A DNA stretch of 50,126 nt from Escherichia phage AugustePiccard. Positions 2,240-39,693 of this stretch are shown in pieces (within the stretch, counting starts at the first letter, position 1; each line of letters begins with the position of its first letter). The position numbers were made by a program, and so were the translations under genes. The stretch lies in sequence record MZ501051. One strand, 5' to 3'. The notes under the pieces were generated by a model. That model saw only the letters and a program-made list of their open reading frames with translations. It searched no databases and was not told the DNA's origin.

Positions 2240-2716
2240 ATGAATTGGGCTGAATTTTTTAGATACGAAGATGGAAATCTGGTAAGGGTTACCACAACCT
2301 CAAGTAGAGCTATTGAGGGCATGGTTGCTGGAAGCTTGTCTGGCAATGGCTATCTGCACATAAGAATAGGCGACAGGCGTGTAAAAAACCATCTCATAAT
2401 TTGGGAGATGCACAATGGAAGGATACCAGAAGGGATGGAGATAGATCATATCAATCACATAAAGACAGATAACAGGATCGAGAATTTAAGGCTCGTAAGT
2501 CACAAACAGAACCTATCAAACGCATCTCTTAGGTCAGACTCGTCAACTGGTGCGAGTGGCGTTAGTTGGAACAGAAACAGGCAGAAGTGGCACGCTTATA
2601 TAAAGTCTAACTACAAGAGGATGCACATAGGATTTTTTGATTCCTTTGATGATGCCGTAGCAGCAAGAAAGAAAAAGGAGATTGAATTGGGATTTCATGA
2701 GAATCACGGAAAATAG
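2240..2716 (+). CDS. HNH homing endonuclease with AP2-like DNA-binding domain (copy 1)
   Basis: Motif IDHINHIKTDNRIENLR plus SGVSW..W.AYI; starts MNW like copies 2 and 3 (track ORF begins at GTG 2231). Confidence 0.8.
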   Translation: MNWAEFFRYEDGNLVRVTTTSSRAIEGMVAGSLSGNGYLHIRIGDRRVKNHLIIWEMHNGRIPEGMEIDHINHIKTDNRIENLRLVSHKQNLSNASLRSDSSTGASGVSWNRNRQKWHAYIKSNYKRMHIGFFDSFDDAVAARKKKEIELGFHENHGK

Positions 2717-2756
2717 CACGAATTGCTAAACGACTAGGCCACGGATGGCGTATAGT
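2711..2756 (+). promoter_or_regulatory. box promoter (palindromic box + 22 nt + -10)
   Basis: AAATAGCACGAATTGCTAAA, 22-nt spacer, TATAGT; leader CAAAACGAGAGGAG. Confidence 0.6.
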
Positions 2757-2787
2757 TACCTTACCAAAACGAGAGGAGAAAAGATAA

Positions 2788-3168
2788 ATGACAAAAAAAT
2801 CAAAGGCTGTATATCTTGGCAACACCGAAGGAGAGTATTATGGTTTCACTGTAGGGAATGAATATGATGTTCACAATTATGAAACTGAAGATAACTTCAT
2901 TGGTACTTTTGGTGATGATGGTGGTTATCGTCACATCAAGAACGGAGCATTCCACAAGTTCGAACTCCTCGAGGATTATGATTTCGTAACTGAAAGCGAA
3001 TGCGCAGTCATGCCCCTTAGTTCCGATAAACAACCAGAGCTTAGATATTTCATAAACGGTCATGAGTTTAATAAGATTGAGTTCGAAAATGTGCGCTATA
3101 CTGTAAATCAACTTGATGAGGGCGGCGTAAAATGCGACACAATCAAGTTCGAAGTAAAATTCGAGTAA
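2788..3168 (+). CDS. hypothetical small protein (moron; paralogue of 17915..18232)
   Basis: Own box promoter and conserved leader; shares GEY.FT.G..Y pattern with ORF 17915..18232; followed by a terminator. Confidence 0.6.
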   Translation: MTKKSKAVYLGNTEGEYYGFTVGNEYDVHNYETEDNFIGTFGDDGGYRHIKNGAFHKFELLEDYDFVTESECAVMPLSSDKQPELRYFINGHEFNKIEFENVRYTVNQLDEGGVKCDTIKFEVKFE

Positions 3169-3189
3169 CCACAAAAGCTATGATAAACT

Positions 3190-3212
3190 AGCCCCCACAT
3201 GGGGCTTTTTTA
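3190..3212 (+). terminator. rho-independent terminator
   Basis: Hairpin GCCCC-ACAT-GGGGC plus T6. Confidence 0.7.
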
Positions 3213-3225
3213 TTGGAGAAACACA

Positions 3226-4488
3226 ATGGTAAAAACAGACAGCTACGCCAATATCTTTCTCGGCGGCAGTGATGGCAGTGAGATTTACGGGAGCTTACAG
3301 AATCAGGAACCTACTATTCTGGCTTCGCTTTATGCGGATAATGCCCTGGTGCGTCGAATTATTGACACAATCCCGGAAACAGCATTAGCGGCAGGATTCA
3401 ACATTGATGGTGTTGATGATGAATCTGCATTCTGGTCGCGCTGGGATGATTTGGAGATGACGCAGAATATTAACGACGCTTGGTCATGGGCAAGGTTATT
3501 CGGTGGAGCAGCAATTGTCGCTATCGTTAAGGACAATAGAGCGCTAACAAGTCCGGTCAGAGAAGGCGCCGAGCTTGAAACGGTTCGCGTTTACGACCGC
3601 ACACAGGTAAAAGTACAAACCCGCGAGGAAAATCCAAGAAACTCGCGATTTGGTAAGCCCCTAACCTATCGCATCACCACTAATGAGAGCGATATGTTCT
3701 TCGATGTGCACTACAGCCGTATTCACGTCATTGACGGAGAGCGAGTCCCTAACGTAATGCGCAGGCAGAATGATGGCTGGGGCCGCAGCGTTCTATCTAG
3801 TGACATTCTTGACTCGATTAAGGATTACACCAACTGTGAACGACTTGCCACGCAATTACTGAAGCGTAAGCAGCAAGCGGTGTGGAAAGCAAAAGGTCTG
3901 GCTGAGTTATGTGATGATAGCGAAGGATTCGGCGCGGCAAGATTAAGGCTTGCACAGGTAGATAATAACAGTGGCGTTGGTCAGGCGATTGGCATTGACG
4001 CGGAATCGGAAGAGTACAGCGTACTCAACTCTGATATTGGCGGGATTGATGCATTCCTGGATAAGAAGTTCGACAGAATCGTTGCGCTGAGCGGCATCCA
4101 TGAAATCATCCTGAAGAACAAGAACGTTGGCGGCGTGTCATCAAGCCAGAATACGGCACTGGAGACATTCCATAAGCTAGTTGACCGCAAGCGTAATGCT
4201 GAGCTACTTCCTATTCTTGAGTTCTTAATCCCGTTCATCGTTAACGTATCGGAATGGTCAGTTGAGTTTAACGCCCTCGCTCAGGAGTCCAGCAAGGATA
4301 AAGCCGAGATTCTTGAGAAGAACGTAAACAGTATCGCAGCACTAATTGCAGCTGGAGCTATGGATACTAACGAAGCCCGTGATACACTACGAACTATCGC
4401 GCCAGAGATTAAGATTGGTGAAGGTGATATTGAGGTTGAAGAACCAACTCAGGAAGTAATCGCGCAGACAGAGGAACCTAATGAATGA
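3226..4488 (+). CDS. portal protein
   Basis: About 420 aa, follows the terminase; acidic C-terminus; RBS GGAG before ATG 3226 (the track start at 3199 lies inside the terminator hairpin). Confidence 0.65.
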   Translation: MVKTDSYANIFLGGSDGSEIYGSLQNQEPTILASLYADNALVRRIIDTIPETALAAGFNIDGVDDESAFWSRWDDLEMTQNINDAWSWARLFGGAAIVAIVKDNRALTSPVREGAELETVRVYDRTQVKVQTREENPRNSRFGKPLTYRITTNESDMFFDVHYSRIHVIDGERVPNVMRRQNDGWGRSVLSSDILDSIKDYTNCERLATQLLKRKQQAVWKAKGLAELCDDSEGFGAARLRLAQVDNNSGVGQAIGIDAESEEYSVLNSDIGGIDAFLDKKFDRIVALSGIHEIILKNKNVGGVSSSQNTALETFHKLVDRKRNAELLPILEFLIPFIVNVSEWSVEFNALAQESSKDKAEILEKNVNSIAALIAAGAMDTNEARDTLRTIAPEIKIGEGDIEVEEPTQEVIAQTEEPNE

Positions 4489-4521
4489 TGAATTTGATGG
4501 CTTTTAGTGAGGAGAATTGGG

Positions 4522-5613
4522 ATGTCTAAAATCCGCTATGACAGCGCAAAGGTGAAAGCCCGATTTGATGAAAACGGTTTTCTGGTTGATACCCCGATTG
4601 TTGCTCGCGTCGGGGTGCAAACATACTACCTTCCGGACGGTACAGAACGCAGAGAATTTAGACCAGCCTCAGAGGTCTTTAAATCTGATTCTCTGGCTAG
4701 TTATCAGGGTAAGCCAATTACCTTAGGTCATGTGTTTGTTAACGCAGACAATGCTAAAGAGGTTGTTGTGGGTGCAGTATCTGGCTCAGCAATGCGCGAA
4801 GATTCAAGCGTGATTGTTCCGCTAACCATTTACGATAAGGAGTCAATCGAGAAGGCCAGAAATGGGATCGCTGGTGAGTTGTCGGTTGGGTACCACACTG
4901 TTGATGTTGAGTCCAAAGGCTGGGGTAGCAACGAAACCGGTGAATATAAGCTGGATGGAGAGTATGGCTCACAAGATGAGATTCCTTCTGACTGGGTTAG
5001 ATTTGATGCTCTACAAACCGAAATCAAGGTAAACCACGTCGCTCTTGTTTATAAAGGTCGCGCCGGTGTGGCCAAACTTAACTTTGACGCTCATCAGGAA
5101 AACCCGTATACTACTGACGTTGATATCAATAAAGAGGATAAACAGGAAATGACAGTTAAAATTAAACTCGACGGCGCGCAGGAATTTGAAGTCGCACCGG
5201 AAATCGCTTCTCACATCGAAGCACTGAACGCAAAGGCTGACACCGCAATCGCTGAACGCGACGCACTGAAAGCTAAAGTAGATGCAATTCCATCTGAAAT
5301 CGAAGCTGCCGTTGCCAAAGCGAAAGCTGATGCTGATGCCCTGGCCGCTCTGGTTGCTGTTGCTGCTGAAGCTGGTGTTAAGGCTGACGGTCTGGATGCT
5401 AAAGGCATTAAAGTGGCTTACGTTAAAGAAGTCTCCGGACTTGATGTTTCCGAGAAATCCGACGCGTACATCGACGCGGCGTTCGACATTGCCAAAGAAT
5501 CTGATAAAATGGCTGAAGTACGTAAAGCGACTACCGCTTCCGACAAATCTGACAGCGCCGATGAGCCTAAGAAATTAGACCCGCGTGCTCGTTTAGCTAA
5601 AATTAAGAAATAA
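4522..5613 (+). CDS. prohead protease / scaffold-like protein
   Basis: Follows the portal; C-terminal Ala/Lys/Glu-rich coiled-coil region (EALNAKADTAIAERDALKAKVDA...) typical of scaffolds; RBS GAGGAG before ATG 4522. Confidence 0.55.
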   Translation: MSKIRYDSAKVKARFDENGFLVDTPIVARVGVQTYYLPDGTERREFRPASEVFKSDSLASYQGKPITLGHVFVNADNAKEVVVGAVSGSAMREDSSVIVPLTIYDKESIEKARNGIAGELSVGYHTVDVESKGWGSNETGEYKLDGEYGSQDEIPSDWVRFDALQTEIKVNHVALVYKGRAGVAKLNFDAHQENPYTTDVDINKEDKQEMTVKIKLDGAQEFEVAPEIASHIEALNAKADTAIAERDALKAKVDAIPSEIEAAVAKAKADADALAALVAVAAEAGVKADGLDAKGIKVAYVKEVSGLDVSEKSDAYIDAAFDIAKESDKMAEVRKATTASDKSDSADEPKKLDPRARLAKIKK

Positions 5614-5625
5614 GGAGTTATAAAC

Positions 5626-6132
5626 ATGGCAATTCGTTCCGTAGCACTGGCTGGTATGGTTTCTGATACCTCTCTGTACAACATCGACGGCGCTTGTGTA
5701 GTTGGTGGCATTGCTGCAATTCCAGTTGGCACTGCAGTTCGCGTAACAACAGCTCAGCCTATTGATGGGCACAAGGTTGTAGTTAACACTGGCATCTCAG
5801 CAGATGAAACACCGTATGGTGTTGTAATTCGCTCCCATTATGAAACTCCTGATGGAACCGCTAAGGCACAGGAAGCAGTTAACGTAATGACTCATGGCCG
5901 AGTGTGGATGCGCGCAGCGAGCAACGTAACCGCTGAGTCTGTAAAGGTTGGTGCGGCTGTTAGTATTAGCGCATCTGGTCTCGTTGATACTGGCGGCGTT
6001 GGCAAGCCTAACTGGACTTACGCAGGTGGTTTTATTTCTAATGCCGTAACCAACCCTCAAGCCAATGACTTCGATCAGCAGGATACTAGCGTTGATGGCG
6101 CCCTGGTTGAAGTGCAGATTCGTCAGGCATAA
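5626..6132 (+). CDS. head-associated protein (possible decoration protein)
   Basis: 168 aa, Gly/Val/Thr-rich, strong RBS AAGGAG; sits between scaffold and capsid genes. Function by position only. Confidence 0.35.
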   Translation: MAIRSVALAGMVSDTSLYNIDGACVVGGIAAIPVGTAVRVTTAQPIDGHKVVVNTGISADETPYGVVIRSHYETPDGTAKAQEAVNVMTHGRVWMRAASNVTAESVKVGAAVSISASGLVDTGGVGKPNWTYAGGFISNAVTNPQANDFDQQDTSVDGALVEVQIRQA

Positions 6133-6165
6133 TCAACTGTTGCAGCTTAATAATTAAGATACATA

Positions 6166-6190
6166 AAGCCTCCTTCGGGAGGTTTTTTTA
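6166..6190 (+). terminator. rho-independent terminator
   Basis: CCTCC-TTCG-GGAGG plus T7. Confidence 0.75.
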
Positions 6191-6243
6191 CGCCTATAAT
6201 CTGTTAACATGGGGTTCCATAAACGCATAAAGGAAACTTAATA

Positions 6244-7533
6244 ATGAACTTTTTAGATTTAGTCAGAAAGCAATACGATAGCGGAAAGGTTAGTCTTTCA
6301 GGAGTAAAGGTTAGCACTGACTTCACAACCACTTCATTAATTCAAGCAGCAACGACAATAGCTAACCCAGTCACTCACACCCGCAAGGATGAAACTAAAT
6401 TTAAGTTTACCACTTACGGGCTGGCTGATGTTTCCGGCGGCTCCTATACTGGGCAGTCGCCAAATGGCGTGCAAATGAAAATTGAGTTCATGACTGACGC
6501 GCTTGTCTTTGAGTTCAAGACTATCGGCTCTATCGGTACGTACTCTGTATTTGTTGATGGAGAGCTAACCAATATTGATGCAATCTCAACTCCTAACGGT
6601 CAAGCCGTTACTTACGTAAGAACCGAAGCCTCAGATGGCGTAATTAAGAGAATGAGACACGTCGAGATTTATGGGGTGAACACTTCATTCGGCGGGTTGT
6701 TTACCGACGCTGCGGATACGGTAACCAGCGAAATCACCATCGATCCAAAACCTTTTATCTACCAGATGGGTGACAGTTACACGTACGGCACTGGCGCAGG
6801 CTACGTAACTCAGGCATACGGCTCATCCCCAGCGATTAACGATTTCTACGTGTTCAGAAATGCGCTAGGCATGGACGGCATCGCGGAAGGTATCGGTGGT
6901 AGCGGATGGAACAGCACGGGCGGGCAAGTTCCGGCCTCAAGGTTGCAAAACAGACTGCTTAAGATGAATCGCAAGCCAGATGTTGTTAGTTTCGCTCTCG
7001 CATACAATGACGCTGCGGCTATTAACACTGGAACTAACGCAAGCAAACTAGTTACCTCGATGGGTGACGCGCTAAAGGTTGTCCGAGATGCAATGCCTGG
7101 CGTTCCTGTTATTCATGTTAGCTGTGCCACGCCAAAAGGAATCACCACGCAAATTCAGAGAGTCATAGACCTTACTCATGATTTTTGCGCAAGAAATGAC
7201 ATTCCCGTGATTGGGATTAGTAACTACGTGACTGCGGCGAACAGCATTTCATACACTGGAACGGATAACGTCCACCCAAACCCTCTGGGGCACGAATTCC
7301 GCGGTTTAGCTATGGCAAGGGAGTCATTAATGGCGGCGCTGGAAGGTCGTAGCCTGGTGCCAGAAATCAAACCCAGCGGTTTCACTGTAACTTACATTGA
7401 GCGACTCCGCTTCGCGGTTGATGTTAAGCGTGAGGTTGTTCAAGCTAAAACCGCAGATGAGGCATACTGGATGGTTAAATCTCGGGAGTACAGCAATCCA
7501 GACTTGAGAATCGAAATCATTTCTGTAGCATAA
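6244..7533 (+). CDS. SGNH/GDSL-family hydrolase (esterase) domain protein
   Basis: GDS block [11 protein letters not shown] and catalytic DxxH block [12 protein letters not shown] in the C-terminal half; flanked by terminators inside the head module. Confidence 0.6.
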
Positions 7534-7537
7534 CAAC

Positions 7538-7562
7538 AAGCCTCCTTCGGGAGGTTTTTTAT
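7538..7562 (+). terminator. rho-independent terminator
   Basis: CCTCC-TTCG-GGAGG plus T7; near-identical to the terminator at 6166. Confidence 0.75.
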
Positions 7563-7615
7563 TAACCTTAACTCTGTTAGACTTATTAGGTCTATTAACC
7601 AATCAGGAGATTAAG

Positions 7616-9049
7616 ATGGCTAGCGAATTAAGAGCAGTAACCGCTGGGACTGCCCACGCCCTAAAGCAAAAAATCATGGAATACATTGCTGATGGTTGGC
7701 AGCCTTATGGAAGAATCCTTAACGCTGGAGCGACTAGCGTTGGTATCATCATGGCGAAAGGTACTACAGCAAGCATTAATGATGTTGATGTTATTACCGC
7801 AGATTCAAGGGCTTCTTTAGTTTCTAAGATTAACTCATCCATCGAAAATGGGTTTGAGATGTTCGGAGAGCAGGAAGTGAACGCAAGTAGATTTATCGCC
7901 TTCATGACTAAGGGTTCTCAAGGTTCATCTGGTGGCGGTGGAGAACCTGGACCAATTGGGCCTAAGGGTGAGAAGGGTGACAAGGGCGACAAGGGAGATG
8001 TTGGTGAGCGCGGACCCGCTGGCCTAGCTGGTGCGGCTGGCGCTACTGGTCCATCTGGCCCTCAAGGTTTAACTGGCCCCGCCGGCGCTAAAGGTGATAC
8101 TGGTGAGCAGGGACCAATGGGTCCAACTGGCGCTACTGGACCTAAAGGTGATACTGGCGAAACTGGTCCCGCCGGACCGCAGGGCCCAAGAGGATTGCAA
8201 GGTGAGCAGGGGGTTCCGGGCGAGGTTGGTCCTGCTGGATTGACATTCCAGGGCGCATGGGATTCTGCTGCGACATATGTGAAGGATGACACTGTAGTTT
8301 ATGATGGGTCTACTTGGTTTGCTCCAGATGCTGTAGCTGCTGGATTAGTCCCTGGAGTTGCTACTGAGTGGATTCTTTTAGCTGCGCAAGGCGCAAGGGG
8401 CGAGGATGGTCCGCAGGGTCCGGTTGGCCCTCAGGGTTTACAGGGTGCCACTGGCCCAGCGGGTCCTACTGGTGCTACTGGTGCTACAGGCCCGCAAGGC
8501 CCTAGAGGTATACAAGGTCAAACTGGCCCGGCAGGCCCAGCAGGTCCTCAGGGTGAGGCTGGTCCTCAGGGTATTCAGGGTCCGCAGGGTGTCGCTGGGC
8601 CTCAGGGATTAACTGGTCCTCAGGGTCCAAAAGGTGATAAAGGCGATGCTCCTTACACATTATTTAACTCGCAGAACGTTACATCAACATACATTGAAAT
8701 CCCTATTCCGCAAGTAACCAACACTGTACTTAGGGTTAGGCTTTCAGGTGCCAACTTTGAATATAGCGTTTTAAGCAAAGGCGGCGCCAATAGATATGTT
8801 GACTTTTACACATTCATCCCGTCATTAACTAGCTCAACGGGTAACATCTATACCGGAGGAACTACCTTGACACCAACTGGTAGCCTCTTTTTGGGTAACT
8901 CCCCCGTGGCTCTTGGATTGAGGGAGTTGACAATAACACTCAAGGAATGGGGCGACAGAACGCTAACTACAATAAAGGCGATACATCACGGCAGATCAGG
9001 TGACACAACAAGACCTTTGCAGATAACTATGTTTAGTAATAAGTATTAA
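7616..9049 (+). CDS. collagen-like (Gly-X-Y repeat) structural protein
   Basis: Two long Gly-X-Y tracts ([23 protein letters not shown]... and [20 protein letters not shown]...) between globular N- and C-terminal domains. Confidence 0.75.
7933..8643 (+). repeat. Gly-X-Y coding repeats (GGN-NNN-NNN periodicity)
   Basis: Repetitive GGT/GGC-CCN triplets inside the collagen-like gene. Confidence 0.7.
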
Positions 9050-9129
9050 CAAAAAGCCCACCATTGCGTGGGCTAAAAACTCGTGTATAATGAACCCGTA
9101 GACACCTAACTGAAAAGGAACAATAAAGA

Positions 9130-27137: not shown

Positions 27138-28103
27138 ATGAGCTTTAAAGTTTTTACGCGAGAGGAACTAAGCAACGAGGCTTATCATAACGAGACTGAG
27201 CATATATCAGGCAGTTCAATTGTCGAGATTATCCAGGGCTCTCCGGCTAAGTGGAAGTTTAAACAGCGTAATAATGATAGCAAGGCTCTTAAGTTCGGAA
27301 CGCTGAGTCACACATACATCCTAGAGGGTGACGTGTTTGATAAAGAATACCTGAGAGCAACTGACCTTGACTCAATTGAAGGATTGATTACCAGCCAAAC
27401 CGGTTTGGCTGCGGCACTTAAGAAAGTTGGTGTGGCTGGCACGTCAGGGAAGGGGTATGGCGAGCTTGTAGAGATGATGTATCGCTCTGGTGAGGATTGG
27501 CCTGTTAAATGGCTAATTGAGCAGAAGGAGAGCGCTCAGGCGCTTGTGGAGGGTAAGGAGTTAGTTAGCGCAGCGGACTACGACAAAGTGGTGGCGATGC
27601 GTGAGGTTCTTTGCAATATTCCGGCATACGATAAGATTGTTAATAGTGAGACGGCGCAGAAGGAGTTATCAATCTTCGGTGAGATTCTAGGCGTTGGCGT
27701 TAAGATTCGAATCGACCATGTTGACGTTATTGATGGAGTCGTTCGGATCACAGACTATAAAACGACAGCGGACGCAAGCCCTGAGGGATTTGGCAAATCG
27801 GCATTCTCGCACGGGTACCTTGCAAAAATGTCGCTTCAGCGCGATCTGTTTGTGAAGGCATTCAACGAGAAGCGAAAGGTTGTTGTGGGATTGTTAGCAC
27901 AGGAGAAGGTAGAGCCATACTTACCAATGCTTTACACCTTGACGGACGAGCAGTTACGAATTGGTAGGTTGCAGTATCTTGAGGCGTTGGCCACTTATAA
28001 GAAGTGCAAGGAGCTAGATATCTGGCCGGGGTACTCGAATGGGATTACAGAGCAAGAGCTACTAGTTCCTGAGTGGGCACTGAAACAATACAAAGAAATA
28101 TAA
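27138..28103 (+). CDS. PD-(D/E)XK-family exonuclease (recombination exonuclease)
   Basis: Motif IDHVDVIDGVVRITDYKTT (D...D-x-K core); directly upstream of erf and ssb. Confidence 0.5.
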   Translation: MSFKVFTREELSNEAYHNETEHISGSSIVEIIQGSPAKWKFKQRNNDSKALKFGTLSHTYILEGDVFDKEYLRATDLDSIEGLITSQTGLAAALKKVGVAGTSGKGYGELVEMMYRSGEDWPVKWLIEQKESAQALVEGKELVSAADYDKVVAMREVLCNIPAYDKIVNSETAQKELSIFGEILGVGVKIRIDHVDVIDGVVRITDYKTTADASPEGFGKSAFSHGYLAKMSLQRDLFVKAFNEKRKVVVGLLAQEKVEPYLPMLYTLTDEQLRIGRLQYLEALATYKKCKELDIWPGYSNGITEQELLVPEWALKQYKEI

Positions 28104-28264: not shown

Positions 28265-28915
28265 ATGCAAATTTCAGAATCATTTAAGTCAATTTTAAGC
28301 GCTCTTCACACTGCTAAGTCGATGTTTGCTAAAGCAGAGAGGTCACAGCAAAACACACACCTTAAGAACAGGTACGCTAAATTAGAAGATGTTTTAGCTG
28401 CTGTTGAGCCAGGACTTGATGAGTGCGGATTAGTTATGTTCCAAAGCGTAATTGACGATGAGTCAACTAACAGATTAAAGGTTGAGACAAAAATATTCCA
28501 TGCCGAATCTGGAGAGTGGGTTAGCTTCTTAATGATCGTCCCAATCAGTAAGAATGATGCGCAGGGTTACGGCTCAGCTTTAACATACGCTCGACGTTAC
28601 GGAATAACGGCAGCTTTAGGCCTTAGCCAGGCAGATGATGATGGTAATCTCGCAGCGAAAGGCGTTAAAGACTTTAAGCGTGAACTTGAGAAGTGCAATA
28701 CTCTTGATGAACTACGTAACGTCTGGAAAGAAGCAAAGCAGTCACTTGACGCGGCAGGTTGGAAGGTTTTCGAACCTCACATTATCGAACGCAAGGCAGA
28801 GATTGAGGCAAACGCGATGACTGGCTTCAACCCAGCAACACCAAAGAAAGTCGCAGAAAAAAGTAGTCATGAAGAAAAGATTGAAGTAGAATCACAACAA
28901 ATCGAAACATTCTAA
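28265..28915 (+). CDS. erf: ERF-family single-strand annealing protein
   Basis: Blocks NRYAKLEDVLAAVEP and GSALTYARRYGITAALGL are typical of the ERF superfamily; ATG 28265 with RBS. Confidence 0.65.
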   Translation: MQISESFKSILSALHTAKSMFAKAERSQQNTHLKNRYAKLEDVLAAVEPGLDECGLVMFQSVIDDESTNRLKVETKIFHAESGEWVSFLMIVPISKNDAQGYGSALTYARRYGITAALGLSQADDDGNLAAKGVKDFKRELEKCNTLDELRNVWKEAKQSLDAAGWKVFEPHIIERKAEIEANAMTGFNPATPKKVAEKSSHEEKIEVESQQIETF

Positions 28916-28956: not shown

Positions 28957-29364
28957 ATGCACGTAATTACTGGTAAGATTAGTCGCGCTCCGTTCACTAA
29001 AGAAGGCGCTAACGCTAACGGTAACTGGAAAATGTTCGCAGTTGATTTGAGTGAGCGATACAAGGATAAAGATGGGAAAACTCAGTACACCAACTACCGC
29101 GCTGTGCTTTTCGCTAAAGAGTCGATGCTAGATTGGTACAATGAGGCATTTCAAGAGGGTAAAGTTGTTAGCATTAGCGCAGAAAGCCTGGCTGTTGATG
29201 TTCGGGATAAAGATGGCAAGACTTACGTTACTGTCAATATGAATAATCCTAGGCTTGAGTTTAGTCAGCGTGGCGATTCACAACCACAGAAAAATAATAG
29301 ACAGCAGCAACAGCAGCATCCTCAGCAACAGCAGCAACAGTTCAATGACGACATTCCATTCTGA
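28957..29364 (+). CDS. ssb: single-stranded DNA-binding protein
   Basis: Gln-rich linker and canonical acidic C-terminal tail DDIPF. Confidence 0.7.
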   Translation: MHVITGKISRAPFTKEGANANGNWKMFAVDLSERYKDKDGKTQYTNYRAVLFAKESMLDWYNEAFQEGKVVSISAESLAVDVRDKDGKTYVTVNMNNPRLEFSQRGDSQPQKNNRQQQQQHPQQQQQQFNDDIPF

Positions 29365-31924: not shown

Positions 31925-31947
31925 AATTTCAACTCCTATTTTTATTG

Positions 31948-31965: not shown

Positions 31966-31988
31966 GTGGATTGTATCATCTTTAGGGC

Positions 31989-32012: not shown

Positions 32013-32935
32013 TAGTTTAGTAGTTCGCTTGCCTTATAGATTCTCTTTCTTATTCCTGACTTGAAAAAATTATCATCATTTGGCATTACCACATCAATAT
32101 TGCGATCGTCAGCAACGGCGAGTAAATCAAGATCGTGGCGAGTACAAGCGATGCGTAACTTGTATTTTCTAAGCGCGTAAGCAACCATTTCCATGTTGTA
32201 GATGGAGTAGCAAACAAGCACGCAGCGGTTGCCAGTAGCAATGTGAACACGATAGCCGTCAATGAGATTATCGACCAGATAAGCGTAATCATCATCCTTA
32301 AAGGAACCAATAACAGAAACAGATTGGCGAGTATAATCTTTTGCAGCATAACTAACACCTCCATATTCATTGATAAACATTACATTACACATTTCTTCTG
32401 ATATGCCGTCACTATAAGCCATAAAGCACGGCACTGCGTGTATTAGTTCGCCTGATTTTGTTCTGCCAACATCAAAGCCAAACTCGCTATAGATTCCCTC
32501 GTATGTACTGAGCGGAGTTGATTCTACTCTTTCAGTCCTTTCCATTATCTCTAAGCATCTTTCGTGGTCAATCTGAGCGCCCATTTTGTAGATCTGGGTT
32601 CTTGATGCTTGCTTGTTTGCTTTAACTATAACCTCAATTGGTGTTAAGTTCAGCCAGTCACCAAGCAAATTTACTGAATCGGCGAAGGACGATCCAGTGC
32701 ACTTCATGACCCATCCTATACCGGAGTCACTCCCGCATTTCGAACAAACTGCCGCGCCATTTCCTTTTTCACTGCCTATTTCGTCGGTAAATCTGAATCT
32801 GTCAGTGCCAAAGCAGTATGGGCATGGTCCGTGCTTCTTACTTAGGTGTCTATCATTCCAACCAAGTTCCTTTGCATAAAATGATTTCCACAATCCGGCC
32901 ATCTTAGGTATAACTTCATTCTTATCGTAATTCAT
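32012..32935 (-). CDS. DNA primase (zinc-ribbon type, putative)
   Basis: N-terminal zinc-ribbon HGPCPYCFGTDRFRF...CSKCG; position beside helicase and HNH. Confidence 0.5.
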   Translation of the reverse strand: MNYDKNEVIPKMAGLWKSFYAKELGWNDRHLSKKHGPCPYCFGTDRFRFTDEIGSEKGNGAAVCSKCGSDSGIGWVMKCTGSSFADSVNLLGDWLNLTPIEVIVKANKQASRTQIYKMGAQIDHERCLEIMERTERVESTPLSTYEGIYSEFGFDVGRTKSGELIHAVPCFMAYSDGISEEMCNVMFINEYGGVSYAAKDYTRQSVSVIGSFKDDDYAYLVDNLIDGYRVHIATGNRCVLVCYSIYNMEMVAYALRKYKLRIACTRHDLDLLAVADDRNIDVVMPNDDNFFKSGIRKRIYKASELLN

Positions 32936-33411
32936 TTGCTTAACCCGTGATTTTCGTGAAAGTTGTATTTTCTCTCTGCTTCAATTCTTACTTTATACGC
33001 CTGCTCTGGAGTATCGAAGTTCCCAAGGTGTAACTGCTTACCGTCAACCTTGATGTGAGCCTTAAATTTTCCGTGATTTAGCTTTGCCACTCCACAATAA
33101 CCAGTTGTTGATAAAACGCTAAGCCTGCAATTTCTTGAGTTACCTTGATTTGTTGTTACTCTTAGGTTTTCTATTCTGTTATCTAATTTGTTATGGTTTA
33201 TATGATCAATGTAGTCGCCATTTTGAAGTTCTCCATTAAACATCTCCCACACAACTCTATGTACGTAAGTCCTAAAGCCATTAACAGACACTTTGTAATA
33301 GCCAGATGTAGATAGTGAGTTGCACTCATCGCCAACCTTAACACGTCTTGCAGTGCTAATCTTCCAATGCAATTTGCCATCTACATAGTAAAAATAATCA
33401 TGCCAGTTCAT
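32932..33411 (-). CDS. HNH homing endonuclease with AP2-like domain (copy 2)
   Basis: Motif IDHINHNKLDNRIENLR; N-terminus MNWHDYFYY paralogous to copies 1 and 3; stop overlaps primase start (ATGA). Confidence 0.8.
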   Translation of the reverse strand: MNWHDYFYYVDGKLHWKISTARRVKVGDECNSLSTSGYYKVSVNGFRTYVHRVVWEMFNGELQNGDYIDHINHNKLDNRIENLRVTTNQGNSRNCRLSVLSTTGYCGVAKLNHGKFKAHIKVDGKQLHLGNFDTPEQAYKVRIEAERKYNFHENHGLSK

Positions 33412-33424
33412 TTTCTTCTCTCCA

Positions 33425-33457
33425 ATAAAAAAGGATGTACCGATTATGGCACATCCA
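33425..33457 (-). terminator. rho-independent terminator (minus strand)
   Basis: GGATGT...ACATCC hairpin followed by T6 on the minus strand. Confidence 0.55.
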
Positions 33458-33462
33458 ATCCT

Positions 33463-33936: not shown

Positions 33937-34037
33937 TTCATTACCTCGATAGCATTTTTTGTTAAAAGTCATTCTGATTTGATGGTAGTATTGTACTCAA
34001 TTAAACGCTACAAGACAATTTTTATAGGAATTTAGAT

Positions 34038-36032
34038 ATGTTGCCTATCGAGAAACTGGTTGCCAACTTTGATAAAGAAAGAATTAAACAGATTCAGAAA
34101 GACTATCAGTTTGGCGAGATAACCCCTTACGAGTTCCAGTGCGTCACATTTGATGCAATCGGAAAGGCCATTGGAAAGTACGAGGCACCATTTATCGCGG
34201 ACCTTTCCGTGTCTGCTGGTAAGACAATCATTCTGGCTATGATTGGTAAGCGCATGGAGCAGCTTGGGCTTCCTTATATGGTTCTCTCTCGCCAGTCAGA
34301 AATTATCAGTCAGAACTCAGAAGAGCTTCGTAATTTCGGTATCCGTAACAGCGTCTATTGCGCCGGCCTCAACGTTAAATCGGTTTACTACCCAACCATA
34401 GTTGCTAGCGAGGGTACGGCAGCTAACGGCTTGTTTAAGGGTCTTGGTGACTACGTTCCTGCTGTTATAGCTATTGATGAGTGTCATATGGTGGACCATA
34501 TGGATATCGTGGAAGCTGAAGAGAACGAAGAAACATTTGAGCAAATGAGCACAAAGAAAGGCGAGATGGTTTTCAAGGATGGTGTTAACACTGGATTGAT
34601 AGGCACAGGGCGAGCGCAGTACACACTAATTATCACTGAGATGAAACGTCGCTGCCGCGAGAAGTACGGTCGTGAGCTTCGTATATTCGGTCTAACTGGC
34701 AGCCCGTATCGTAACAACGATCATATCGTCGTTAGCAACCCAAACATCCGTGGATTTTGGCGCAAGACGGTTATTCAGGTTCCAACCAATTACCTGGTTG
34801 ATTTAGGTTTCGTTGTTCCCACAGTTTACGGTGAAGTTGGCGATCTGGGATATGACCTTGCGGAGTTTGCGCCGGATGGCAGTGATGGCGTGAAAGACTT
34901 TAGCAAGAAAGAAATGGAAGCGATGCAGGAAAAAATTCATCAAAACCAGTCCATGACTCAAAAGATTATGGGTTTTGTTGTAAAAATACTAGAGACTCGT
35001 AACGCCGCATTGGTAACGTGTGCTGGTAAACTTCACTGCGAAGAAGCTGCTGCAGCGCTACCAGATGGATACCCTTACGCCATCATCACAGACTCTACTG
35101 GTGAGAGGAAGCGCAGAGAGATTCTTGACGATTGCCAGACAGGGAAGTATAAAATAATATTCCAGATTGGTTGTCTAACTACGGGGGTGTCGGTTCCACC
35201 GTGGGATACAAGCGTTATACTTAGAAAGATCGGCAGCCTTACACTACTGATCCAGCTACTTGGTAGGGGTATGCGAATACTCAAGAAGAAACATAAAGAA
35301 CTTGGAATGGTTAAGGACGATCATTTGGTTCTTGATTTCGCTGGTGCGCTTGATGACATGGCGGAGCTTTACTTTGACCCAATTATTGAAGAGATTCAGG
35401 CTGAGAAGTTTAAATCATCAAGAAAAGGTGGCGATGAGGTTCGCCAGTGTCCGCAATGTGGTTATGAGAACTCTCCGTTCGCTCGCAGGTGTGGTAACAA
35501 GATTGATGGAAAGCGTTGTGAGCACTTTTTCAGCTTTACGGTTTGTGAAGATATTACTGACCCGCAAACAAAGGCTGTTATAAAGAAAGGCTGCGGTACT
35601 CGCAATGACATAGCAGCAAAGGTTTGCAGGGAATGCGGAGAGATGCTTAAAGACCCAAATGCTAACCTGACTGGCAAGATGTATCGTCGTGGTGATTACC
35701 TTCGTGTTTATGATTTTCAAGTTGGGTTAAGTAAGAATCAGACAGGCATTGTAGTTAAGTACAACATCATGGCGCATAACGGAGAGAGGTTTAATGCTTG
35801 GGAGTTCTTTAATCCAGAATCAGACCATAGAGTTTGCAGTGTGCTTTGGAAGAACTTCTGCCTTGCTCATATTGAGAATCGAACTGAGGCCGCGCGAATT
35901 GGAAGACTGAAGAATGCCAGAATGATTATGACTAACTTGGATAAGTTCCGTGCGCCAGTTCAGGTTACACACCGAAGGAATGGCAAAGGAAAGGACGTGA
36001 TCGCTTTTAAGAATTTTGGAGAATTGCTATGA
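34038..36032 (+). CDS. SF2 helicase (DEAD/DEAH-box) with C-terminal zinc-ribbon
   Basis: Walker A SVSAGKT, Walker B/DECH AIDECHMV, and Cys clusters CPQCG...C...C / CRECG. Confidence 0.8.
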   Translation: MLPIEKLVANFDKERIKQIQKDYQFGEITPYEFQCVTFDAIGKAIGKYEAPFIADLSVSAGKTIILAMIGKRMEQLGLPYMVLSRQSEIISQNSEELRNFGIRNSVYCAGLNVKSVYYPTIVASEGTAANGLFKGLGDYVPAVIAIDECHMVDHMDIVEAEENEETFEQMSTKKGEMVFKDGVNTGLIGTGRAQYTLIITEMKRRCREKYGRELRIFGLTGSPYRNNDHIVVSNPNIRGFWRKTVIQVPTNYLVDLGFVVPTVYGEVGDLGYDLAEFAPDGSDGVKDFSKKEMEAMQEKIHQNQSMTQKIMGFVVKILETRNAALVTCAGKLHCEEAAAALPDGYPYAIITDSTGERKRREILDDCQTGKYKIIFQIGCLTTGVSVPPWDTSVILRKIGSLTLLIQLLGRGMRILKKKHKELGMVKDDHLVLDFAGALDDMAELYFDPIIEEIQAEKFKSSRKGGDEVRQCPQCGYENSPFARRCGNKIDGKRCEHFFSFTVCEDITDPQTKAVIKKGCGTRNDIAAKVCRECGEMLKDPNANLTGKMYRRGDYLRVYDFQVGLSKNQTGIVVKYNIMAHNGERFNAWEFFNPESDHRVCSVLWKNFCLAHIENRTEAARIGRLKNARMIMTNLDKFRAPVQVTHRRNGKGKDVIAFKNFGELL

Positions 36033-36448
36033 ACATAACAGATAAAGAAGATTACATTGAGTTTTACCCGGGCCCGGTTAAGTATTGCCCTAAAGAGGAT
36101 GACGAGCAAATCTTTTGCTCTGATTGGGTTAAGTATCATTACCCTCAGATTGTTTACTGGCACACGGTTAATGAATCGATGAAGACCATTGGACAGGCAA
36201 GAAAAGACCAGGCCAAAGGTTTGCTTAAGGGGGTTTCGGACTGCTTATTCCTGATACCTGAATCACTTCGTGGTAAATACCCTTTTGGAGCCATAGAGCT
36301 AAAAAGGGCCGGGAAGACGCAGGCGAGTCCAGTCAGCGACGAACAGAAGTCCTTCCTTAAGAGCGTCAGAGAATCGGGCGGCTTCGGGGCTGTAGCTTAC
36401 GGACGTGAGGGTTTTCTTGCGGCATTCAAAGAAATGATTTCAAAATAG
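36029..36448 (+). CDS. VRR-NUC domain nuclease
   Basis: Motif DCLFLIPE...GAIELKRAGK (D..E.K core); overlaps helicase stop (ATGA). Confidence 0.55.
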   Translation: MNITDKEDYIEFYPGPVKYCPKEDDEQIFCSDWVKYHYPQIVYWHTVNESMKTIGQARKDQAKGLLKGVSDCLFLIPESLRGKYPFGAIELKRAGKTQASPVSDEQKSFLKSVRESGGFGAVAYGREGFLAAFKEMISK

Positions 36449-36488
36449 CACGAATTGCTAAAGACGTTTCGGTGAGTTGGTGTATTAT
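36443..36488 (+). promoter_or_regulatory. box promoter
   Basis: AAATAGCACGAATTGCTAAA, 22 nt, TATTAT, leader TTCATCGAAACGAAACG; the TAG is the VRR-NUC stop. Confidence 0.6.
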
Positions 36489-36526
36489 CTATTCATCGAA
36501 ACGAAACGCACAAAGAGAGAAACAAA

Positions 36527-36817
36527 ATGGCTACTATCTATACTGGTAAATTCTACGAATCACGCAAAACTGGTTATGAGTATGAATTAGTAATAACCCC
36601 AGAAGGTTATGTACTTGATGATGGTGAAGGGTACGCATTCGAAGTTAGCCCGACTTACAAAGATGATTTAGAAACTGTTAAAAACGCATTTGGCGAAAAA
36701 TTTGATGTTATTGATGATGGTGATGGCTACGCATTCGAAGTTAGCCCAACCTACAAAGATGATTTAGAAACTGTTAAAAACGCATTTGGCGAAAAAATTG
36801 ATGAGGTATCAGAGTAA
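36527..36817 (+). CDS. hypothetical small acidic protein with internal 32-aa tandem duplication
   Basis: Box promoter and leader; DDG(E/D)GYAFEVSPTYKDDLETVKNAFGEK occurs twice. Confidence 0.6.
   Translation: MATIYTGKFYESRKTGYEYELVITPEGYVLDDGEGYAFEVSPTYKDDLETVKNAFGEKFDVIDDGDGYAFEVSPTYKDDLETVKNAFGEKIDEVSE
36618..36809 (+). repeat. 96-bp tandem duplication (2 copies) inside ORF 36527..36817
   Basis: Two near-identical units starting gatgatggtga(a/t)gg(g/c)tacgcattcgaagttagccc... Confidence 0.75.
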
Positions 36818-37038
36818 TGGCAATTTTTACACTTGAAAAACAATGGGAAGTTTTCCAGTCGATGGTGGATCAGGAGTTGCATAAAGCTGGGTATAAACAT
36901 GAAGGCTGGGATATGGCTTGGTGCCTGGATATGAGCTTTGAAGAAGACTACCTGAATACTGATATCGAAACGTGGCGCGACCGCATGGTTGCAGACATTG
37001 AAGAAATGAAGAAAGATTGCCCGGAGGATTTCTTATGA
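36817..37038 (+). CDS. hypothetical protein
   Basis: 73 aa, overlaps upstream stop (TAATG). Confidence 0.45.
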   Translation: MAIFTLEKQWEVFQSMVDQELHKAGYKHEGWDMAWCLDMSFEEDYLNTDIETWRDRMVADIEEMKKDCPEDFL

Positions 37039-37226
37039 TTGGAATCTGCGTAAAAACAAATGGACGCTTTACACTGCTCGAGGATTACGAAATCAACTTT
37101 GATTCAGGCGGCGCAATAACAGTAAAAGGAGAAGATGAATTACATTGGTTCCTTAGTTATCAAGGTGATGGCTACTACGGTTGCACGGATTGCTACGGAA
37201 AAGAAGTTAGCTTCTTAGTAGAATAG
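37035..37226 (+). CDS. hypothetical protein
   Basis: ATG 37035 with RBS GGAGGA; ATGA overlap with upstream stop. Confidence 0.45.
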   Translation: MIGICVKTNGRFTLLEDYEINFDSGGAITVKGEDELHWFLSYQGDGYYGCTDCYGKEVSFLVE

Positions 37227-37266
37227 CACTTTTTGTTAAAACTCAAATCCAGGGATGGATTATATT
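37222..37266 (+). promoter_or_regulatory. box promoter (variant box)
   Basis: ATAGCACTTTTTGTTAAA, 22 nt, TATATT. Confidence 0.5.
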
Positions 37267-37296
37267 AAGCACATAAACAACGAAGAGGGTTAAGAG

Positions 37297-37422
37297 ATGA
37301 AAATTGTAGACAAAGAGATGTTCGAGATCGCACAAGCATACGCAAATGACGCAGTTAAAACTGGTTCGGAATACTGCTGGATGTGCGCTAAAGAATACCT
37401 GAAAATGGCTTACGGGTTATGA
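37297..37422 (+). CDS. hypothetical small protein (41 aa)
   Basis: Downstream of a box promoter; RBS AAGAGGG; ATGA overlap with next gene; below the ORF-track size cutoff. Confidence 0.35.
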   Translation: MKIVDKEMFEIAQAYANDAVKTGSEYCWMCAKEYLKMAYGL

Positions 37423-37667
37423 TAGTTGAAACCGGTCGCGCCGCAGTTTGGGCGCACTGTGGAGAGGCTGGTTTGCAAGATGACATTAAGCAGATATCCC
37501 GCTTCTTTGACATAAAAGATATCAGTGTCGTGTTCAATGGTAAATTCTCTTACATGGATGAGCGCCCAAGAAAATACGTAAGAGTTAAGCCAGGTGTCAG
37601 GATTGATGTTAATGAGTTCCTTAAATCTGAGGGATTCAAGTTTAAGATAACGAAGCCTAAGGATTGA
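37419..37667 (+). CDS. hypothetical protein
   Basis: 82 aa, translationally coupled. Confidence 0.45.
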   Translation: MIVETGRAAVWAHCGEAGLQDDIKQISRFFDIKDISVVFNGKFSYMDERPRKYVRVKPGVRIDVNEFLKSEGFKFKITKPKD

Positions 37668-37669
37668 GT

Positions 37670-37921
37670 ATGTTGGGTTTAGATTTCCAGCCAGAGCATT
37701 ACGATTTAGTGCACGGGAAAAGTGGTGCAAAGTTTAGGTCGATACCTATCTCTGACTGGTTCCCTCCTGATTATGTGGATGTGAACGCAAAAACTAAAGG
37801 CGGGAAGTGGGTGCAGATTTACTACTCCCCAGCATGCGGAAACCTTTGCATGACTGACCTTGACAAAAAATTAGCAATTAGTGCGGAAGTGATCGACTAC
37901 TGGTTGAAAGAAGTTGAATGA
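37670..37921 (+). CDS. hypothetical protein
   Basis: ATG 37670 with RBS AAGGA. Confidence 0.45.
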   Translation: MLGLDFQPEHYDLVHGKSGAKFRSIPISDWFPPDYVDVNAKTKGGKWVQIYYSPACGNLCMTDLDKKLAISAEVIDYWLKEVE

Positions 37922-38004
37922 CTAGCCTAATACTAGTAGCATCGTTACCACTGTTTAGCTTTACTATCTTATACTTTATCGTAATGAATTAAGGAACTTA
38001 TATA

Positions 38005-39135
38005 ATGGCAACTGCAAAAATCACCAACGAACAATTGCGCGAAGAGCTAGCAAATGGCATGACCAACAAGGCAATCGCAGAGAAGTACGGAATGAACATT
38101 CGCAACGTTGAATTGCGTCGCAGTAAATTAGCGAAGAGTGGAGAATTGCACGGAAACCCGGGAATCAAGAAGTTAGTTCCTGACGGCTATTTGGTCAAAG
38201 GGACGTCAACGATGATTGACGCTGAGGGCAACGAAAAGATTCGCTGGGTTAAGACCTCTGTAGATAATGAGCGCCTTGAGGTTTTGATGGAACAGGCTCG
38301 AGAGGCATTCTGCTCTGAGTTGCCAAAGGCAGATTCGGTCACCCACTCAGGCAATGAGGTCAACTCTGAATTAATGACTCTTTACCCTATTTTCGATATC
38401 CATATCGGCATGATGGCTCATCGACATGAGTCTGGTGAAAATTATGACACCAATACCGCAGAGAAATTAATGGAATCATATTTCGATCATGCAATTTCTG
38501 TATCGCCATCCTCAGAGAAAGCTGTGATTTTAGTTGGCGGCGACTTCCTTCACTCTGACGGATTGGAAGCTGTAACCCCAGCAAGCGGACACTGCCTTGA
38601 TCAGGATAGTAGGTATGCTAAGTTAGTTTATGTTGCGATTCGCTCAATTCGTGGTGCCGTAGAGAAGATGCTTAAGAAGCATAAGAATGTCGAGATTCAG
38701 ATTATAGAGGGAAATCATGACCAGAGTGGTATGATTTGGCTCCGTGCGGCAATGGCTGCATTTTATGAAAACGAGAGTCGCGTCTTTGTTGATACCAGTC
38801 CGGCAATCATGCACAAAACTAGATTTGGCTCAACATTACTTGGTTACACACACGGCCACACAATGAAGAAGGCAGAAGGCAGGCTTGCAGCTATGGCAAC
38901 TGATTACAGGAAAGATTTTGGTGAGTGTGAATTTGTTTATTGCCATTCCGGGCATTTTCACCACGCAACTGTTACAGAGTGCACACTTGGGATTGATGAG
39001 GTTCACCCAGCCCTGGCTAGCAAGGATGCATATGCCGCTCGCGGAGGGTGGCGATCATATCGCCAAGCGGCTGCAATTGTTTACCACAAGAATTTTGGCG
39101 AGGTTGGTCGACACATTTATCGCCCCGGTATGTAA
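38005..39135 (+). CDS. metallophosphoesterase (calcineurin-like) with N-terminal HTH domain
   Basis: N-terminal HTH-like segment (MTNKAIAEKYGMNIRNVELRRSKL); phosphoesterase motifs DIHIG, GGDFLHSD, GNHD, THGH, GHFHH. Confidence 0.6.
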   Translation: MATAKITNEQLREELANGMTNKAIAEKYGMNIRNVELRRSKLAKSGELHGNPGIKKLVPDGYLVKGTSTMIDAEGNEKIRWVKTSVDNERLEVLMEQAREAFCSELPKADSVTHSGNEVNSELMTLYPIFDIHIGMMAHRHESGENYDTNTAEKLMESYFDHAISVSPSSEKAVILVGGDFLHSDGLEAVTPASGHCLDQDSRYAKLVYVAIRSIRGAVEKMLKKHKNVEIQIIEGNHDQSGMIWLRAAMAAFYENESRVFVDTSPAIMHKTRFGSTLLGYTHGHTMKKAEGRLAAMATDYRKDFGECEFVYCHSGHFHHATVTECTLGIDEVHPALASKDAYAARGGWRSYRQAAAIVYHKNFGEVGRHIYRPGM

Positions 39136-39179
39136 ATAGCACCTTTTGTTAAAACAGTAGCCGCGAAAGCGGCTATTAT
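39133..39179 (+). promoter_or_regulatory. box promoter upstream of HNH copy 3
   Basis: AAATAGCACCTTTTGTTAAA, 22 nt (contains hairpin GCCGCGAAAGCGGC), TATTAT. Confidence 0.55.
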
Positions 39180-39207
39180 TGTTTTATACAAACGATAGGA
39201 GATTGAA

Positions 39208-39693
39208 ATGAATTGGCATGATATTTTTGAATACAACGATGGCATTCTTTATCATAAAGTTAAGTTATGTATAAGAAATGATGTTAACGTTGGTGATATT
39301 GCTGGGGGGGGCGTTAGGCAAAACGGCTATCACTACGTGAATTACAAAAATAAGTTTTACAAAAGGTCAAGGGTTGTATGGGAGATGTTTAATGGAGATA
39401 TACCTGAGGGATTTGTCATTGATCACGTCAACCATGACGCGACAGATGACAGGATAGAAAACCTAGAGTGCAAGGAGCGCAGGGATAACATGGTTAATGT
39501 AAAGCTAAGGATTGATAGCTCCTCTGGTGTAACTGGTGTAGCAAGAAAGAGCGGTAATAAGTGGAGGGCATACATAACAATCATGGGTAAGCAGAAGTCC
39601 AAGAGCTTTAACACGTTTGAGGATGCTTGCGCACAGAGGATTGAATGGTCGGTAACTCATGATTTTCACCCAAATCACGGTGGAAAATACTAA
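39208..39693 (+). CDS. HNH homing endonuclease with AP2-like domain (copy 3)
   Basis: Motif IDHVNHDATDDRIENLE; N-terminus MNWHDIFEY; own box promoter. Confidence 0.75.
   Translation: MNWHDIFEYNDGILYHKVKLCIRNDVNVGDIAGGGVRQNGYHYVNYKNKFYKRSRVVWEMFNGDIPEGFVIDHVNHDATDDRIENLECKERRDNMVNVKLRIDSSSGVTGVARKSGNKWRAYITIMGKQKSKSFNTFEDACAQRIEWSVTHDFHPNHGGKY

Follow-up and report, generated by a model that had tools for sequence, protein, structure and literature searches.

Three open reading frames (ORFs) in the genome of Escherichia phage AugustePiccard (sequence record MZ501051) encode related proteins that combine an HNH endonuclease core with an AP2-like C-terminal part. They raise the question of whether such genes are resident functions of the phage or selfish elements, and of what sequence moved with them. 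The window analysed here is the whole stretch of 50,126 nucleotides (nt), a complete-looking Rtp/T1-like siphophage genome (Drexlerviridae, Braunvirinae) whose first letter is at the ATG of terS. We refer to the three genes as HNH1 (2240-2716, plus strand), HNH2 (32932-33411, minus strand) and HNH3 (39208-39693, plus strand), and to their positions as site 1 (after terL), site 2 (before the primase gene) and site 3 (after a repair exonuclease gene). A sequence-only reading had proposed that they are selfish homing elements. Presence and absence among relatives, exact boundaries, site-tied lineages, hyper-conserved tracts and purifying selection support that proposal, and we consider it probable (roughly 0.78) that HNH1-3 are free-standing homing endonuclease genes, all three of the HNH(HNN)-AP2 type (Magnani et al. 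2004, as cited in PMC10448857) with co-converted flanks.

Occupancy of the three junctions

Each junction was compared by megablast with 50,697 phage records. Empty sites were the rule in relatives, the gene being present at the terL junction in 1 of 91 matching records, at the primase junction in 9 of 116 and at the exonuclease junction in none of 104 at the DNA level. Many of the matching records are near-identical isolates, so independent genomes are fewer than these counts. Conservation of all three genes at the same positions with no empty sites, which would have spoken against homing, is clearly not what we found. The insertion boundaries between occupied and empty junctions are precise, the genes flanking all three ORFs are intact and uninterrupted, and the G+C content of the HNH genes is 0.38-0.415, against 0.448 for the genome.

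HNH1 is a free-standing gene for a protein of 158 amino acids (aa), located between terL and an ORF for a 126-aa virion protein. An in-frame GTG lies upstream at 2231; the homologs begin at the ATG at 2240. The only carrier in the phage records at the DNA level is Escherichia phage RobRod40, which is also the best DNA relative of the window (~88% identity across 76% of the first 25 kb). The HNH1 protein is 96.2% identical to WWD13261 of RobRod40 and 58% identical to the next best match, and a 91% homolog was found directly after terL in a metagenomic contig. The nine records with HNH2 (159 aa) represent six phages (CEB_EC3a, RobRod40, DTL, IME542, phiA2-1 and TR1); protein identity is 98.1-98.7% in these nine records and then drops to 48%. 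The best match of HNH3 (161 aa) in the phage collection is gp15 of T1 (ST15, YP_003930; 78.3%), encoded at a junction with the identical gene order (exonuclease ST16, HNH ST15, ST14, holin). Homologs with 95% and 80% identity occupy the same junction in metagenomic contigs, the closest (95%) being known from a single contig. When public assemblies were queried for the exact HNH1 and HNH3 sequences, nothing was on record, and the close homologs came from the protein search. No database genome was found with the combination of HNH1, HNH2 and HNH3 at the three sites. An HNH gene beside the Drexlerviridae lysis cassette, the site 3 junction, is sporadic and was counted in 25 of 522 genomes (PMC13164509).

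The neighbours can now be stated more exactly than in the sequence-only reading. HNH2 does lie between a Cro-like transcriptional regulator and the primase gene, as claimed. HNH1 had been placed between terL and the portal gene; the terL side is correct, and the variable 126-aa ORF (2788-3168, plus strand) intervenes before the portal. HNH3 had been placed between a phosphoesterase and lysis genes; the gene upstream encodes a DNA-repair exonuclease/phosphoesterase of 376 aa, and on the other side a lysis-module ORF for 58 aa (DUF7244, SH3-like) intervenes before holin and endolysin. The description of all three positions as module boundaries applies to site 3, a true border, and has to be dropped for site 1, inside the packaging module, and site 2, inside the replication module. 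The 126-aa ORF beside HNH1 is itself a variable locus. It belongs to phrog_14592 (virion structural protein), has no Pfam match, is missing in BEK1-1 and the metagenomic contig L012, and shows nt identities of 35-52% with CEB_EC3a, SU57 and G8 and 69-79% with RobRod40 and BEK2.

Pairwise comparison of the HNH proteins gave 75-99% identity for the same site and 32-50% for different sites. Each junction has its own endonuclease lineage, kept across distant phages and even between subfamilies, as in T1 and the window. At site 3, BEK1-1 and G8 have HNH genes of another lineage, whose proteins share 75% identity between the two phages and 37% with HNH3, and BEK1-1 carries yet another lineage at site 2. 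Unrelated genes also occur at these junctions: a polynucleotide kinase/phosphatase and an ATPase at site 3 in SU57 (L006, 39030-40060) and several others, and a 62-aa ORF at site 2 in BEK2 (L002, 30209-30397).

Free-standing HNN/HNH-AP2 endonucleases are a described class in which T1 and Rtp are listed with several copies (PMC2248197), and HNH-AP2 genes have been treated as homing endonucleases at boundaries of genetic exchange (PMC10448857). The enzymes of Xp10, OP1 and Xop411 (PMC2248197) and IPA-HNH of ICP1 (PMC10448857) likewise join an HNN-type His-Me finger to a C-terminal AP2 domain, and genes of this phage class likewise occur as several divergent copies per genome, free-standing, sporadic and in some cases degenerate. 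For the Xanthomonas phages no conserved flank was found and transfer was judged to be sequence-independent (PMC2248197), whereas every HNH1-3 lineage keeps to a single junction and a conserved promoter-like element delimits two of these genes, HNH1 and HNH3. The IPA-HNH domains of ICP1 are too divergent for Pfam HNH_3 (PMC10448857), whereas HNH1-3 score 65-75 bits. Several kin in T1/Rtp-like phages are already annotated as HNH endonucleases (RobRod40 WWD13261 and WWD13296, DTL ORF60, CEB_EC3a gp38), HNH1 and HNH2 being 96% and 98-99% identical, respectively, to annotated genes at the same junctions. Since the class is described and the closest homologs of HNH1 and HNH2 carry this annotation, identifying the genes is correct but ordinary.

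Protein architecture and selection

All three paralogous ORFs are present where the sequence-only reading had put them. Their products align end to end with 40-43% aa identity and 48 invariant columns, and reciprocal phmmer searches among them gave E-values of 8e-33 to 3e-34. No fourth paralog or degraded copy was found among six-frame ORFs of at least 40 aa in the window. Nucleotide similarity between the genes is confined to patches of at most 101 nt at 69-76%, so HNH1-3 are old paralogs, and a recent duplication of one HNH gene within this genome was ruled out. The shared N-terminus MNW(H/A)(D/E)xFxY was confirmed by the alignment. Of the proposed HNH core, IDH(I/V)NH holds for all three proteins, and DNRIENL has to be amended for HNH3, which has DDRIENL.

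All three proteins exceed the 24.8-bit cut-off of Pfam HNH_3 (PF13392), with scores of 75.4 (HNH1), 65.5 (HNH2) and 64.8 bits (HNH3), and all are assigned to phrog_99 ('HNH endonuclease'). The catalytic Asp-His, the structural Asn and the metal-binding Asn of the beta-beta-alpha-metal (His-Me finger) core (D69, H70, N82 and N91, HNH1 numbering) are invariant across HNH1-3; in an alignment of 46 family members the first three show no variation and N91 is conserved to at least 90%. The AP2-like C-terminal block was upheld at the level of profile and fold and not by single-sequence Pfam scoring, in which AP2 (PF00847, cut-off 33.3 bits) reached 20.4 bits for HNH1 and 15.0 bits for HNH3 and was not reported for HNH2. 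Some homologs do carry a precomputed PF00847 match. When the 46-sequence profile was compared with the PDB, residues 1-98 matched the homing endonuclease I-HmuI (1U3E, E=2e-9) and residues 100-156 matched AP2/ERF domains, namely those of WRI1 (7wq5, E=7.5e-4), TEM1, Plasmodium PfAP2 and Toxoplasma AP2 (further entries 7et4, 3igm and 9fi8).

The AlphaFold2 model of HNH1 (predicted local distance difference test, pLDDT, 88.2) shows strands at the N-terminus, a beta-beta-alpha core and, at the C-terminus, a unit of three strands plus a helix (residues 108-150). The predicted core comprises strands 66-70 and 83-87 and helix 88-93, with pLDDT of 90-96. A Foldseek search with this model returned 1u3e first (probability 1.0, E 3e-3), followed by the AP2 domains of TEM1 and WRI1 (probability 1.0, root-mean-square deviation, rmsd, 1.4-2.0 Å, E only 0.05-0.13). 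The whole-model E-values are weak because each match spans one domain only, and our interpretation of the fold rests on the Foldseek probability and rmsd together with the independent sequence-profile result. At profile and fold level, each protein is therefore predicted to consist of an I-HmuI-like N-terminal half, an HNH(HNN) core and an AP2-like C-terminal DNA-binding domain. I-HmuI, from Bacillus phage SPO1, resembles HNH1-3 in the N-terminal DNA-contact strands and the HNH(HNN) core, but it is encoded by a group I intron and differs in its C-terminal part; the resemblance stops near residue 98, beyond which HNH1-3 are AP2-like. The intron-encoded class was rejected for HNH1-3, as all three are intergenic or operon-embedded ORFs. 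By analogy with I-HmuI, their activity may be limited to nicking one strand, with no double-strand break.

The ratio of nonsynonymous to synonymous divergence (dN/dS) was 0.18-0.37 for close pairs and 0.04-0.09 for same-site pairs at deep divergence (dS>1), so the HNH proteins are maintained by purifying selection. The catalytic residues are intact in the three window copies. Two copies in relatives have lost one: the site 1 copy of RobRod40 (L001, 1636-2112) reads IYHINH (D69Y), and a copy between terS and terL in BEK2 (L002, 576-1088) reads IDRINH (H70R). To judge by these substitutions both are probably inactive, and such loss of catalytic residues is a decay expected in the life cycle of homing elements.

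Strong purifying selection is also what a domesticated function would produce, with HNH1 acting as a packaging nuclease like HK97 gp74, or the proteins serving as AP2-type regulators or as weapons against co-infecting phages. In favour of such a role, HNH1 directly follows terL, AP2 domains are transcription factors elsewhere, and the DNA-binding domains of homing endonucleases have been co-opted in other systems (PMC10448857). We nevertheless regard domestication as most improbable. HNH1 is missing from ~90 related records of phages that package their DNA normally, and it consists of HNH_3 and AP2-like domains, no other HNH family matching it at E<=0.1. T1-like phages, moreover, are terminally redundant headful packagers, and the T1 record carries a repeat_region annotation. 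On the absence from the terL junction in 90 of 91 related records and on the domain content, HNH1 was ruled out as a gp74-type packaging HNH. The intact catalytic residues make a pure regulator unlikely, and a role as a competition weapon would be compatible with homing rather than an alternative to it.

Tracts shared around HNH2 and HNH1

The clearest trace of movement surrounds HNH2, which has no flanking repeat and forms part of the regulator-primase operon. The gene takes the place of the primase ribosome-binding site (RBS) and ends in a TGA that overlaps the ATG of primase (ATGA), HNH2 being translationally coupled to primase. Directly upstream, after the regulator gene, is a terminator-like hairpin (33433-33456, minus strand) with a nine-pair stem and a T-run. 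The hairpin is kept at empty sites, where the primase RBS and ATG come straight after it. Sliding-window comparison revealed a mobile tract of 856 nt (32604-33459, minus strand) comprising primase codons 1-111 with the zinc ribbon, HNH2 and the upstream hairpin. The tract is ~99% identical in all six carriers (at most ~10 mismatches per 856 nt), while identity in its flanks is 63-95%. For phiA2-1 it is only 63-69% in the adjoining primase sequence, and the difference between tract and flank is highly significant (Fisher p=1.8e-39). Both tract ends are identical in the six carriers, the upstream end falling exactly at 33459/33460. The fixed left end, at 32604, may reflect that homology resumes only at that point.

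The part of primase that travels with HNH2 is the first 332 nt of the gene (32604-32935, minus strand), an N-terminal allele with Zn_Ribbon_Prim (PF08273, residues 33-73). Identity over residues 1-111 is 98-100% for carriers and 48-68% for non-carriers, and over residues 112-307 it is 63-92% for carriers and 85-91% for Braunvirinae non-carriers. The nt sequences of non-carriers agree, with 47-68% identity in the first 332 nt and 85-95% in the remainder of the gene. From this gene-linked identity in carriers and divergence in non-carriers, HNH2 travels with a distinct primase N-terminal allele. A linkage of this kind would be expected to arise if the alternative allele is cleaved by the enzyme and the flank is co-converted during repair, and it makes the 5' region of primase (32604-32935) a candidate target region in HNH2-less phages.

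The same pattern might instead reflect a selective sweep of a beneficial primase zinc-ribbon allele and of a terL 3' end, for instance through defence escape or primase specificity, with HNH2 and HNH1 hitch-hiking. The conserved tracts do take in functional parts of essential genes, and tract ends identical in all carriers would agree with a sweep. We consider a sweep very unlikely all the same. The tract always holds a complete endonuclease gene and stops exactly at 33459/33460 in six carriers. In G8, which lacks HNH2, the primase allele is of the carrier class, and with an nt identity of only 64-68% it shows no sign of such a sweep. At site 1, L012, a more distant metagenomic carrier of the HNH1 lineage, has a terL end of the non-carrier type.

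HNH1 likewise lies within a tract (2082-2719, plus strand) that is near-identical to RobRod40 and includes the last 96 nt of terL, the cassette leader and HNH1. It has 14 mismatches in 638 nt (97.8% identity) compared with 64 in 312 nt of flank (Fisher p=1e-20), the flanks being 78-82% identical; the signal is clear but based on one database carrier. Non-carriers are only 49-55% identical at 2101-2200, and the final ~12 terL codons are recoded relative to them, a recoding that L012 does not share. For HNH3, nt identity to T1 is 71-94%, compared with 51-66% in the adjacent exonuclease gene save for one 100-nt bin (85%).

Taken together, these patterns would fit the following cycle, in which we infer cleavage, target position, repair-mediated copying and nuclease-dependent inheritance. 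On co-infection with an HNH-less relative, the enzyme would nick or cut the empty allele near the junction, HNH2 likely in the 5' third of the primase gene and HNH1 at the terL 3' end or the junction. The break would be repaired by recombination with the gene-bearing genome through the phage ExoVIII, Erf and SSB, and repair would copy the endonuclease gene together with adjoining sequence resistant to cleavage. The window codes for ExoVIII (27138-28100), Erf (28265-28912), SSB (28957-29361) and a VRR-NUC nuclease, which makes break repair with a co-infecting genome plausible.

Free-standing homing endonuclease genes of the T4 type cleave in the neighbouring gene of a phage that lacks them and cause marker exclusion. 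The seg genes encode GIY-YIG enzymes and only mob genes encode HNH enzymes; homing has been demonstrated experimentally in T4 and is proposed from sequence for HNH1-3. The likeness to seg and mob lies in intergenic genes beside essential genes, the proposed cleavage in the neighbouring gene with flank co-conversion, and exchange breakpoints (general concept in PMC10448857).

A promoter-like element at the cassette boundaries

HNH1 and HNH3 differ from HNH2 in their setting. The window contains 16 intergenic copies of AATAGCAC, with ~2 expected, at 2173, 2712, 17840, 24435 (minus), 26453 (minus), 28103, 36444, 37222, 39135, 39693, 43605 (minus), 44869 (minus), 46465, 47616, 48038 and 48605. The full element reads AATAGCAC-GAATTGCTAAA, ~22 nt, TATAGTTAC, CATCGAAACGAGAGG and then ATG, and within it TAGCA/TGCTA forms a 5+5 palindrome. 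It is always in the orientation of the downstream gene, ~75-85 nt ahead of the ATG, and it often contains the stop codon of the gene upstream. Eight T1-like genomes, T1 included, were checked, and all have 12-21 copies. The element may be a phage-specific promoter or operator family. A simple sigma-70 scan did not call the AATAGCAC elements promoters; TTGCTA and TATAGT are ~22 nt apart, a spacing that is not canonical for sigma-70, so promoter function can only be proposed. In SU57 the BPROM calls of other annotators fall on or beside some copies.

Empty alleles of sites 1 and 3 contain the element once; in the window a copy stands on either side of the HNH ORF. The downstream copy matches the resident element. 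At site 1 the resident element of the downstream gene (2711-2787, plus strand, AATAGCAC at 2712-2719) aligns with the single copy at the empty sites of BEK2, SU57 and CEB_EC3a; at site 3 that of the DUF7244/lysis genes (39692-39778, plus strand, AATAGCAC at 39693-39700) aligns with the single copy in BEK2, RobRod40 and CEB_EC3a. These elements form the right boundaries of the two cassettes. The upstream copy is a variant (AATAGCACyTTwTG...) followed by a hairpin, an RBS and ATGAATTGG, and it is common to HNH carriers. The HNH1 leader (2172-2239, plus strand; AATAGCAC at 2173-2180, hairpin at 2197-2212, RBS) is shared with RobRod40 and L012, and the HNH3 leader (39134-39207, plus strand; AATAGCAC at 39135-39142, hairpin at 39156-39177, RBS) is nearly identical in T1, BEK1-1 and G8. 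Empty sites have neither leader. Both the upstream gene and the HNH gene have their stop codons in or at an element, the HNH1 stop (TAG, 2714-2716) falling within the next AATAGCAC copy. The alignments indicate that HNH1 and HNH3 are self-contained units, in which the ORF comes with its own promoter-like element, hairpin and RBS, and that the insertion point is exactly a resident element copy. In the promoter-stem-loop (PeSL) mobile regulatory cassettes of T4-type phages, small ORFs at variable loci are bracketed by promoter-like repeats with a hairpin. The HNH1 and HNH3 cassettes differ from these in sequence motif and in carrying an endonuclease whose distribution is site-specific, and their element is a putative promoter.

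A repeat of this kind suggests a mechanism that needs no nuclease, in which the genes are passive cargo shuffled by homologous recombination between repeated elements or conserved flanks, in the manner of morons or of the PeSL cassettes. The direct repeats around HNH1 and HNH3 with one copy at empty sites, the presence of the element 66-73 nt upstream of the start codon in 12 of 20 surveyed HNH cassettes, the 12-21 copies per T1-like genome and the non-nuclease inserts at the same junctions would all agree with it. We consider such shuffling quite unlikely, because 16 equivalent elements should scatter a lineage over the genome, and each lineage stays at one junction even between subfamilies. 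The strongest signal of spread is moreover that of HNH2, the gene that has no flanking repeat, and conserved catalytic residues and dN/dS down to 0.04 also speak against shuffling. All three alternatives weighed here rank below homing.

Several points nevertheless weigh against homing. The identical ends of the HNH2 tract in six carriers mean that independent transfers are not countable, and they are what a primase-allele sweep with hitch-hiking HNH2 would leave, improbable as we hold that to be. The excess identity around HNH3 is modest with carrier L013 (93-99% vs 86-94%) and absent with L014, and same-site carriers of HNH3 differ by dS>1, so that much of the history of HNH3 is vertical. The non-nuclease cargo at site 3 of SU57 and site 2 of BEK2 marks the junctions as general hot spots of cassette exchange. 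Gain and loss could also proceed independently of the nuclease, through direct repeats of the element, and strong purifying selection could stem from a benefit to the phage.

A further reading is that the element serves a class of 'promoter-borne' HNH-AP2 cassettes of T1-like phages as their docking or target site, with local context giving site preference, and that the HNH2 cassette is a vehicle swapping the zinc-ribbon (template-recognition) domain of primase between phages. Such cassettes would consist of the variant element, a hairpin, an RBS and an ORF ending ...HG(K)-TAG-CAC. We judge this joint proposal unlikely. If true, a homing family would spread via the phage's own repeated regulatory element and homing would drive domain shuffling in an essential replication protein.

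If HNH1-3 are homing genes, ~1.6 kb of the genome is selfish cargo, which explains local breaks in synteny and identity (the terL 3' end, the primase 5' third and the lysis-module border) that would distort phylogenies of T1-like phages. The BASEL paper cautions against homing-endonuclease 'infestation' and gene conversion in alignments of phage genomes in general, worst in larger genomes. The primase allele linked to HNH2 indicates where the cleavage site would be expected in HNH2-less phages, and mapped specificities, if obtained, could make these small nicking or cutting enzymes useful for engineering T1-like phages. The value is mainly in annotation and as a teaching-quality example, leaving knowledge of homing endonucleases unchanged. 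On a small scale, the strict junction-specificity of the lineages, the linkage of HNH2 to the primase zinc ribbon and the promoter-like element as a cassette boundary may be new.

Some further variable loci were observed in the window. The terS-terL spacer is 101 nt long, compared with 17 nt in CEB_EC3a, SU57 and G8, and contains a very hydrophobic 31-aa mini-ORF (526-621, plus strand; MKGFIKLFIWYYLLTSISLCVFMLVVKLWLI) that overlaps the terL start and begins at the RBS used for terL in relatives. We rejected the spacer as a scar of the HNH gene carried there by BEK2 and RobRod40, as it has no similarity to that gene. At ~37000-37300, ~300 nt including an ORF for 69 aa (37017-37226) and the element copy at 37222 are missing in BEK2 and the metagenomic relatives L013 and L014, another small insertion/deletion cassette beside an element copy. 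The 96-aa ORF at 36527-36817 (plus strand) has an internal tandem duplication of ~29 aa, with DDG(E/D)GYAFEVSPTYKDDLETVKNAFGEK occurring twice; the ORFs of relatives at this position are ~195-204 nt long, with an alignment gap at ~36600-36800.

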